From Vulcanimicrobiota bacterium (lineage in GTDB: Bacteria; Vulcanimicrobiota; Vulcanimicrobiia; Vulcanimicrobiales; Vulcanimicrobiaceae), in the NCBI GenBank assembly GCA_963754565.1, contig CAVWGL010000009.1:281546-345545 (forward strand): a stretch of DNA of 64,000 nucleotides, in the 5' to 3' direction. The position numbers and the translations under genes were made by a program. The notes beneath the pieces were generated by a model. The model saw nothing but the letters and a program-made list of their open reading frames with translations. It was not told where the DNA came from and did no database searches. Shown here in pieces: positions 43,947 through 44,243 of this stretch (within the stretch, counting starts at the first letter, position 1; every line of letters starts with the position of its first letter).

Positions 43947-44243
43947 GTGCTGGTACTGACGAGGCATGTCCACCAGAGCATCGTGATAGGCCAGGACGTC
44001 GTGATTACGGTTCTGGAGGTCCGGGGGGACCAGGTCCGGCTGGGGATCACAGCACCGAAGGACGTCCAGGTCCATCGCGAGGAGGTCTTTGCCGCCCTGT
44101 CGGCCGCCGAGCGCCAAGACAGTTTGCCCGAACCGGGTGCATCTGAAAGGGTGCCTCACGGCGTTGTCCGCCAGGGCGTTGTGCCCGAGGACGTTGCGGC
44201 CCAGAACATCGGAACGGCCACGGACCAGAGCCCTAGGGCCTGA
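43947..44243 (+). CDS. csrA: carbon storage regulator CsrA/RsmA-family RNA-binding protein with a C-terminal extension
   Basis: GGAAGGAG lies 6 nt upstream of GTG 43947. [48 protein letters not shown] aligns position by position with canonical CsrA ([48 protein letters not shown]). Confidence 0.8.
   Translation: [98 protein letters not shown]

Follow-up and report, generated by a model that had tools for sequence, protein, structure and literature searches.

Control of the RNA-binding regulator CsrA is usually attributed either to the protein FliW or to decoy small RNAs (sRNAs) driven by BarA-UvrY. FliW antagonises CsrA in Bacillus subtilis, Geobacillus thermodenitrificans, Campylobacter and Borrelia. 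Escherichia coli CsrA and Pseudomonas RsmA-RsmE are governed through CsrB/C and RsmX/Y/Z under BarA-UvrY or GacS-GacA, and the E. coli csrA leader is autoregulated via GGA motifs at its Shine-Dalgarno site. CsrA paralogues are also borne by mobile elements, as with CsrT/LvrC on a Legionella integrative and conjugative element (ICE) and RsmQ on a Pseudomonas plasmid. Here, we describe a csrA gene at positions 43947-44243 of a 64,000-nucleotide stretch of contig CAVWGL010000009.1 (the whole of which is called the window below), the product of which is probably a homodimeric RNA-binding regulator that acts independently of FliW, binding GGA-containing leaders and modulating how non-flagellar mRNAs are translated or how stable they are.

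The window CsrA shares with FliW-antagonised CsrAs (B. subtilis; G. thermodenitrificans, PDB 5DMB) its family, its conserved core, its ancestral gene position as judged from orthologous loci, and an extension past residue 55. It differs from them in carrying Glu for Asn55, in the loss of the NRxAA motif and in having a divergent acetyltransferase gene upstream, while neither FliW nor flagellin was found in window-type genomes. Its likeness to the E. coli and Pseudomonas proteins consists of a gap-free alignment of 59 residues, a presumed FliW-free mode of working and GGA motifs at its own Shine-Dalgarno site; however, it is of FliW-type descent, has a 40-residue tail and His in place of R7, and a search of the 64-kb window turned up no RNA of the CsrB or Rsm type. 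As in the element-borne cases, relaxase and type IV secretion system (T4SS)-like genes occur within 3-9 kb and the assembly seemingly has a second CsrA, but the true carriers possess a single CsrA, the gene block is vertically inherited, and a chimeric contig offers the best explanation of the "second copy". Other FliW-less CsrAs of the Acidimicrobiia (e.g. G000:C6:195109-195345, in the assembly itself) have likewise been kept without FliW or flagellin, and their residue 55 is usually not Asn; that protein nevertheless belongs to a separate lineage, being only 50% identical to the window core and encoded in the context sat, VOC, csrA, TauE, and its loss of the partner was a separate event.

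The csrA gene and its descent from a flagellar operon

The csrA locus comprises the following features (ORF, open reading frame; dN/dS, ratio of nonsynonymous to synonymous substitution rates).

43947-44243, plus strand: csrA, GTG start, 98 amino acids (aa), from the ORF call
43947-44108, plus strand: CsrA core, codons 1-54, with the RNA-binding beta-strands and the start of the C-terminal helix; R44 and VHREE kept (profiles, structure alignment, dN/dS)
44109-44111, plus strand: codon 55, GAG, giving Glu at the FliW-docking Asn55 position (alignment)
44112-44243, plus strand: C-terminal tail, residues 56-98 and stop; NRxAA...EL..L lost, TDQxP-like motif near the end
43912-43946, plus strand: csrA promoter-like -10 element TAGGCT (43912-43917) and short leader (..CGCCCAGGGAAGGAGCGAGCA), conserved in nearly all of 21 loci
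43635-43898, minus strand: 5' end of a divergent Eis-like GNAT/SCP2 acetyltransferase gene, in the position held by fliW in sister lineages

The Pfam CsrA model PF02599 matched residues 1-50 with 84.8 bits against a cut-off of 27, and two NCBIfam equivalog models were passed as well, NF002469 with 87.3 bits (cut-off 73) and TIGR00202 with 75.9 bits (cut-off 70.1). E. coli CsrA (PDB 1Y00) aligns with the window protein over residues 1-59 without a gap, and the structures of Pseudomonas RsmE and of the Yersinia and Geobacillus CsrAs also gave gap-free alignments. Residues L2, L4, R6, V40, V42, H43, R44, E45 and E46 are identical to those of E. coli CsrA, and I47 is replaced by V; the RNA-binding residues of the family (L2, L4, R6, V40, V42, R44, E46 and a hydrophobic residue at 47) are all in place. 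Database relatives are about 90% identical across residues 1-57. The profile scores above curated thresholds and the alignment to E. coli CsrA bear out an earlier note on this DNA, which had read the gene as a canonical CsrA/RsmA homologue, and confirm 43947-44243 as a genuine, intact canonical CsrA. Given its identity to solved dimers, the protein would be expected to form an interdigitated homodimer that binds GGA motifs, and we infer that it may bind RNA, repress translation and regulate its own synthesis.

The contexts of csrA were compared among database relatives and at 80 loci that a tblastn survey had collected from genomes representing species. The series flgN-flgK-flgL-fliW-csrA is closed by csrA in several Acidimicrobiales as well as in Actinoplanes and related genera. 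The order in the wider clade of the window is (fliA-like sigma) flgN-flgK-flgL-fliW-csrA, followed by genes for a 311-aa sigma factor, a lipoprotein, an LPG_synthase_TM protein and TrwC. An 83-93%-identical orthologue stands after flgN-flgK-flgL-fliW at L013/L014/L023, L024, L026, L028, L029, L031, L033 and L035, and at these fliW-adjacent loci it is followed by the sigma, lipoprotein, LPG-synthase and TrwC genes in the order seen in the window. Elsewhere, the four flagellar genes are gone, and csrA is kept together with everything downstream of it; this is the arrangement of the window, L011, L020, L021, L022, L027, L032, L034, L012/L036, L037, L039 and L040. When the adjoining LPG-synthase gene was used for a maximum-likelihood tree, the window grouped with L011, L020, L021, L032, L027 and L034 (support 100/100); all seven loci of this clade are without fliW, and the lineages among which it nests are fliW-adjacent. 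Three further fliW-less lineages lie apart in the same tree, and at least three to four state changes are needed overall. Downstream synteny, the 83-93% core identity and the nesting in the tree thus show that the window csrA descends from a csrA that ended the series flgN-flgK-flgL-fliW-csrA.

The upstream neighbour of the window csrA is the divergent Eis-like gene and not fliW; relative L011, at 92% identity, has an unbroken copy of 375 aa, whereas single-base indels break the frame in the window. The statement of the earlier note that csrA has no adjacent FliW partner holds, given the Eis-like gene in that position, and it extends to the genomes searched (G000 and G097-G100). FliW (PF02623) and flagellin (PF00669) had no match in assembly G000, which is 94% complete, and G097-G100 each encode one CsrA. 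The note had, on the other hand, counted a known FliW partner in close relatives as evidence against its case, and this is partly what was found, as close orthologues adjoin fliW at the end of the flagellar operon. In genome G101, the csrA-sigma pair (L012) is without flagellar neighbours, and a flagellar cluster with fliW and two flagellin-domain genes lies 45 kb away (G101:C4:2278296-2278443 and 2280155-2289634; L105, L106); G101 is an intermediate. A second csrA in that cluster matches in two frames, the split being due to either a frameshift or an assembly error. A different order, fliW-csrA-flagellin, occurs in the assembly's own family (in the class sample described below, e.g. G160:C1:971436-972743), unlike the order in the window clade and Actinoplanes.

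Residue 55, selection on the core and FliW-less CsrA in the class

Asn55 of B. subtilis CsrA is needed for FliW binding, the interaction being abolished by N55D, and no variation has been reported at N55 or at FliW Q124 wherever CsrA and FliW are encoded together (bioRxiv 10.1101/2020.07.02.184341). The residue numbering is common to the window CsrA and the reference, because the alignment has no gap through this region. We examined residue 55 in the survey loci and in a class sample of 151 genomes of at least 90% completeness, weighted towards one genus. Counted over sequences that are not phylogenetically independent, in a pattern that recurs across many genera, N55 was found in 66 of 66 FliW-linked CsrAs examined, a total made up of all 44 FliW-positive genomes of the class sample, 11 of 11 fliW-adjacent members of the window's wider clade and 11 of 11 other fliW-adjacent actinobacterial loci. 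None of the seven members of the window's FliW-less clade has it (E in five, D in two), and it is kept in nine of the 58 FliW-less class-sample CsrAs that reach position 55, four others stopping short of it. In FliW-linked CsrAs, Asn55 is usually followed by R/Q-x-A-A, a motif that is gone in the window's clade. The alignments show an apparent decay of the FliW-docking determinant (Asn55 plus NRxAA) in this clade.

The core tells a different story. Within the FliW-less clade, core codons 2-54 display 2-18 synonymous and 0-5 nonsynonymous differences, with dN/dS of 0.00-0.14 at dS (synonymous divergence) of up to 0.63, and the ORF is intact in all seven members. These values show strong purifying selection on the CsrA core, and the low ratio implies that the RNA-binding part was held by selection while the partner-docking part decayed.

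The 98-aa length of the window protein recurs in its closest relatives, where the tail is 84-94% identical; within the FliW-less clade as a whole, lengths range from 69 to 98 aa, and conservation of the tail is limited to those closest relatives. A frameshift was considered as the origin of the long tail and rejected: the tail is not an assembly artefact, because 91-94%-identical relatives are also 98 aa long and csrA has no indel relative to them. The C-terminal extension of about 45 aa, previously described as non-conserved, is variable beyond the closest relatives, as claimed, but it is not arbitrary, and represents what is left of a degenerated FliW-docking extension. Near its end (44214-44243), the window protein reads T-A-T-D-Q-S-P, and xTDQGP or PDQRP occurs in the otherwise divergent tails of L021, L027, L032 and L034, with "DQ" in the sister FliW-linked proteins; this TDQxP-like terminal motif could be a docking or a degradation motif.

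Zere et al. (2015) found FliW or BarA-UvrY in 340 of 346 CsrA-encoding genomes and regarded BarA-UvrY as characteristic of gamma-Proteobacteria (PMC4682653). The picture obtained here is different in the class. CsrA was present in 135 of the 151 genomes, FliW in 50, flagellin in 50, and CsrA together with FliW in 49. Neither FliW nor flagellin accompanied CsrA in 86 of the 135 CsrA-positive genomes, and these 86 comprise all 46 members of the assembly's genus as well as members of at least 18 other genera. The presence of CsrA in 135 of 151 genomes makes it routine in the class, and the partnerless state is that of the majority of the sample. Contrary to what the earlier note had supposed, CsrA is thus not uncommon here; within the assembly's genus, too, it is carried by 76 of 80 species. 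The accompanying claim that it is functionally uncharacterised agrees with our literature search, which found no study of CsrA function in Acidimicrobiia; a paper on flagellar evolution in Actinobacteria includes CsrA and FliW merely among the proteins searched (PMC10746217). Partnerless CsrA is common in the class, yet undescribed as far as could be found, and many lineages may have kept CsrA after independent flagellar losses. Some FliW-less CsrAs elsewhere in the class exhibit VLR or IRR in place of VHR (H43 lost, R44 kept) and an N-terminus changed to MLCLNRK, as at L119, L124, L125, L127 and L129-L132 (genus g33) and at L123, L130 and L136 (genus g27), which suggests further functional drift.

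How csrA may have outlived its operon is indicated by the sequence directly upstream. A block TAGGCT...CGCCCAGGGAAGGAGCGAG is common to 21 clade loci with small variants: the hexamer TAGGCT (of the form TANNNT) and CGCCC are followed by RGGAAGGAGCGAG up to the start codon, the variants being confined to three loci (TATGCT in L033; AAGGAGGAGCGAG in L027 and L034). The block is kept whether fliW or an unrelated gene lies upstream, despite saturated synonymous sites in csrA. It is most simply read as a promoter that csrA would have possessed within the ancestral operon, and such an internal promoter would have kept csrA expressed after the flagellar deletion. Two GGA motifs lie within or beside the csrA Shine-Dalgarno site, and autoregulation there, as in E. 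coli, is therefore plausible.

We propose the following history. The gene would have been the last of an ancestral flgN-flgK-flgL-fliW-csrA operon, of the kind found in Acidimicrobiales and in further actinobacteria with flagella. The lineage of the true host would then have lost fliW along with the flagellar genes, and csrA would have outlived them because the spacer between fliW and csrA already supplied it with a promoter and a leader. Purifying selection would have retained the RNA-binding core as docking Asn55 gave way to Glu or Asp and NRxAA decayed. The present homodimer, free of FliW, would bind GGA-containing mRNA leaders and block or modulate translation initiation of non-flagellar targets.

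Source of the window DNA

The identity of the true host matters, since the contig appears to be composite. The assembly G000 (3.07 Mb in 11 contigs) has two CsrA matches, one in the window and one on contig C6. In 76 of 80 other species of its genus CsrA is single and of the C6 type, only 40-63% identical to the window's core, and the window type occurs in 0 of the 80. Tetranucleotide composition is uniform over the assembly except at the end of contig C9, where it shifts at about 278 kb and stays shifted to the contig end at 356,829. This outlier stretch, from C9 278,058 to the end (about 79 kb), includes the whole window, and no other segment of the genome is like it. The breakpoint at 278,058 lies 3,488 bases before window position 1, at the very point where a repeat of 8.57 kb (C9:269,492-278,058) ends that is 99.5% identical to C11:171,351-162,782.

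A 20-kb portion of the window had no DNA match in 25 genomes of the genus except for 200 bp of sigma region 2, while a control portion of 20 kb from the main part of C9 matched all 25 almost over its full length at 67-88% identity. Conversely, contig C13 of G097 ("uncultured Acidimicrobiaceae bacterium MFD03399.bin.2.46", 6.0 Mb) runs colinear with positions 16-64 kb of the window, the two being 96-98% identical, and G097 and its kin scarcely match the main part of C9. The DNA is that of Acidimicrobiales, in keeping with the actinobacterial context that had been suggested from the letters alone. Roughly one single-base indel per kb is present in the window at sites where the relatives L020 and L011 (95-96% identical) agree, with examples within 37000-51000 at 38946, 39003, 39700, 39839, 40869, 41196, 47472, 48066 and 48627; none falls in csrA or the sigma gene. 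ORF N50 is also lower in the C9 tail (312 aa) than anywhere else in the assembly. The window genes whose frames are broken (hemE, hemY, HelD, Eis and relaxase) are intact in L011, and because the indels are not shared by L020 and L011, these breaks probably reflect errors in the consensus of a foreign population with thin coverage rather than pseudogenes.

Most likely, then, the window comes from an organism resembling G097, and mis-assembly attached it to the 3-Mb genome, its true lineage being, on comparative grounds, an Acidimicrobiaceae species of about 6 Mb that is some 96-97% identical to G097. The two csrA copies of G000 lie on compositionally and phylogenetically different DNA, and, with the window being foreign, the apparent duplication is probably an assembly chimera. 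As the contig is very probably chimeric, it is no safe basis for genome-level claims, whether of paired CsrA paralogues or of disrupted heme genes. A shared mobile repeat was considered as the cause of the join and discarded: the 8.57-kb repeat was not found in G097-G101, and it encodes ordinary genes.

We also weighed whether the window could be a very recently acquired genomic island of at least about 79 kb, perhaps conjugative, in a host that has both a native and an imported CsrA, much like the Legionella ICE and Pseudomonas plasmid paralogues. The tail does share one contig with genus-typical DNA, a relaxase (TrwC) and T4SS-like (TrbC-like) genes are present, and CheckM-type contamination is only 0.06%. 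Nevertheless, the stretch reaches the contig end and begins exactly at the edge of the repeat shared with C11; at least 48 kb of it, including the housekeeping genes hemE and hemY, follows the gene order of a 6-Mb genome's chromosome at 96-98% identity; the csrA-sigma-...-TrwC block is vertically inherited across the clade; the indel rate and the low ORF N50 fit a poorly covered foreign population; and the window CsrA type is missing from all 80 genus species. We regard such an island as improbable. A second CsrA paralogue on an ICE was likewise set aside as the principal explanation, as G097-G100, the genomes of the true-host type, have a single CsrA with no extra copy beside it and the block was inherited vertically.

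The native CsrA of the assembly (G000:C6:195109-195345; L001 1501-1737) is a 78-aa protein encoded between a VOC/glyoxalase gene and a TauE-like permease gene, downstream of sulfate adenylyltransferase, and has a C-terminal VGK..A.D motif in common with its genus relatives. A search of 46 genomes of the genus for FliW and flagellin found neither in any of them.

The downstream sigma factor and competing explanations

Directly downstream of csrA lie a sigma factor gene and its leader.

44441-45376, plus strand: 311-aa sigma-70 family factor with regions 1.2, 2, 3 and 4 and without region 1.1 (Pfam)
44244-44440, plus strand: csrA-sigma spacer, 197 nt
44270-44298, plus strand: sigma promoter-like site CCGACA-17-TATCAT (consensus scan)
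44299-44440, plus strand: sigma leader, about 140 nt (alignment of 20 loci)
44423-44440, plus strand: 5-codon mini-ORF GTG AGG ACA AGG GAC TAA, its stop abutting the sigma GTG start

The sigma protein fell below the cut-offs of all NCBIfam RpoD and SigB equivalog models and is for that reason called group-2-like; its position 197 nt downstream of csrA on the same strand is as described in the earlier note. Over the clade, it is 91-100% identical at the amino-acid level and always directly follows csrA. The consensus scan returned one promoter site before the gene, where 0.1 were expected, and this site lies inside a conserved GGGCCCGGTATCAT block. The A/GTG-AGG mini-ORF occurs in 20 of 20 loci, with its stop abutting the sigma GTG in 17, overlapping it in two and ending 1 nt before it in one. 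Its peptide, M-R-T-R/T-D, was noted, and the mini-ORF could mark translational coupling or simply be a Shine-Dalgarno site. A structured RNA or riboswitch in the spacer was tried as an explanation and rejected, given that an Rfam search of the spacer had no match at E <= 1, that the RNAalifold signal is weak and that the folds resemble those of shuffled sequences. Inherited synteny best accounts for csrA and the sigma gene being neighbours, an arrangement seen whether flagellar genes are there or not. CsrA could regulate the sigma gene, given the GGA at the ribosome-binding site of the latter, but there is no specific support for this.

Several observations weigh against the view that the window CsrA is a FliW-free regulator of GGA-containing leaders. 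No CsrA target was identified in the analysis. CCACGGA-type CsrA sites are not enriched in the window (13 against 15.7 expected), and the conserved sigma leader gave an RNAalifold energy of -2.3 kcal/mol with two compensatory pairs, its single-sequence folds equalling those of shuffles. The residue corresponding to R7 of E. coli CsrA is His. L012, L039 and L040 have no adjacent fliW and yet keep N55, and absent adjacency alone is no proof of fliW loss, because the genome of L012, G101, has fliW 45 kb off. Finally, FliW and flagellin were not found in G097-G100 (4.5-7.7 Mb), for which completeness is not given, so that absence there means "not found".

That FliW remains the antagonist, being encoded elsewhere, unassembled or highly divergent, would be in line with G101, whose fliW and flagellin genes lie 45 kb from a seemingly orphan csrA-sigma pair, and with the possible incompleteness of metagenome-assembled genomes; four genomes of 4.5-7.7 Mb display neither FliW nor flagellin, however, and N55, reportedly invariant where both proteins occur, is E or D in exactly the window's clade, and we consider a hidden FliW highly improbable. 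Hardly credible at all is a functionless relic of the flagellar operon that merely awaits decay. FliW and the classical target flagellin were indeed not found and the C-terminal motif has degenerated, but the core evolves at dN/dS of 0.03-0.14 (up to 18 synonymous against 0-5 nonsynonymous changes), the ORF is intact in all seven clade members, promoter and leader are conserved, and 86 genomes of the class sample that have no FliW have likewise kept csrA. A functional module in which CsrA specifically controls translation of the downstream sigma factor, through GGA at its Shine-Dalgarno site and mini-ORF, might be read from the adjacency of the two genes in about 20 loci of several genera, flagellar genes or not, and from the conserved leader, in which TGAGGA is invariant and a second GGA mostly present 3-18 nt before the start codon. 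Common descent of closely related genomes accounts for this synteny, though, and at L015 and L030 the genes after csrA are different ones; a promoter-like site of its own precedes the sigma gene, GGA in a Shine-Dalgarno sequence is generic, and there is neither a loop-GGA hairpin nor covariation (fold z-scores of -0.5 to +1.2), so that this module seems unlikely. Slightly less doubtful, albeit tentative, is a third, so far undescribed mode of CsrA action in non-flagellated Acidimicrobiia, with neither FliW nor BarA-UvrY/CsrB, in which the remodelled tail (E55, TDQxP) or another RNA or protein might serve as input to a non-flagellar regulon, possibly including the adjacent sigma factor.

FliW-free regulation of non-flagellar genes by a CsrA of flagellar-operon descent remains our preferred reading. 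The locus would then represent a natural experiment in which the RNA-binding function of CsrA was parted from its flagellar partner switch, and it indicates a conserved non-flagellar role of CsrA in Actinobacteria. Furthermore, residue 55 may serve as a simple sequence marker that predicts whether a CsrA is under FliW control.

Known families of decoy sRNAs were not represented at the Rfam gathering score within the 64-kb window, to which this search was confined. An array at 28326-28600 has the top GGA density on the plus strand, where 250 nt contain 13 GGAs compared with 3.8 ± 2.0 on average, and eight of its GGAs sit in four Shine-Dalgarno sites of mini-ORFs; its proposed role (as 28357-28606) as a CsrA target or decoy is purely conjectural. 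A second site with 13 GGA per 250 nt is located on the minus strand at 10751-11000.

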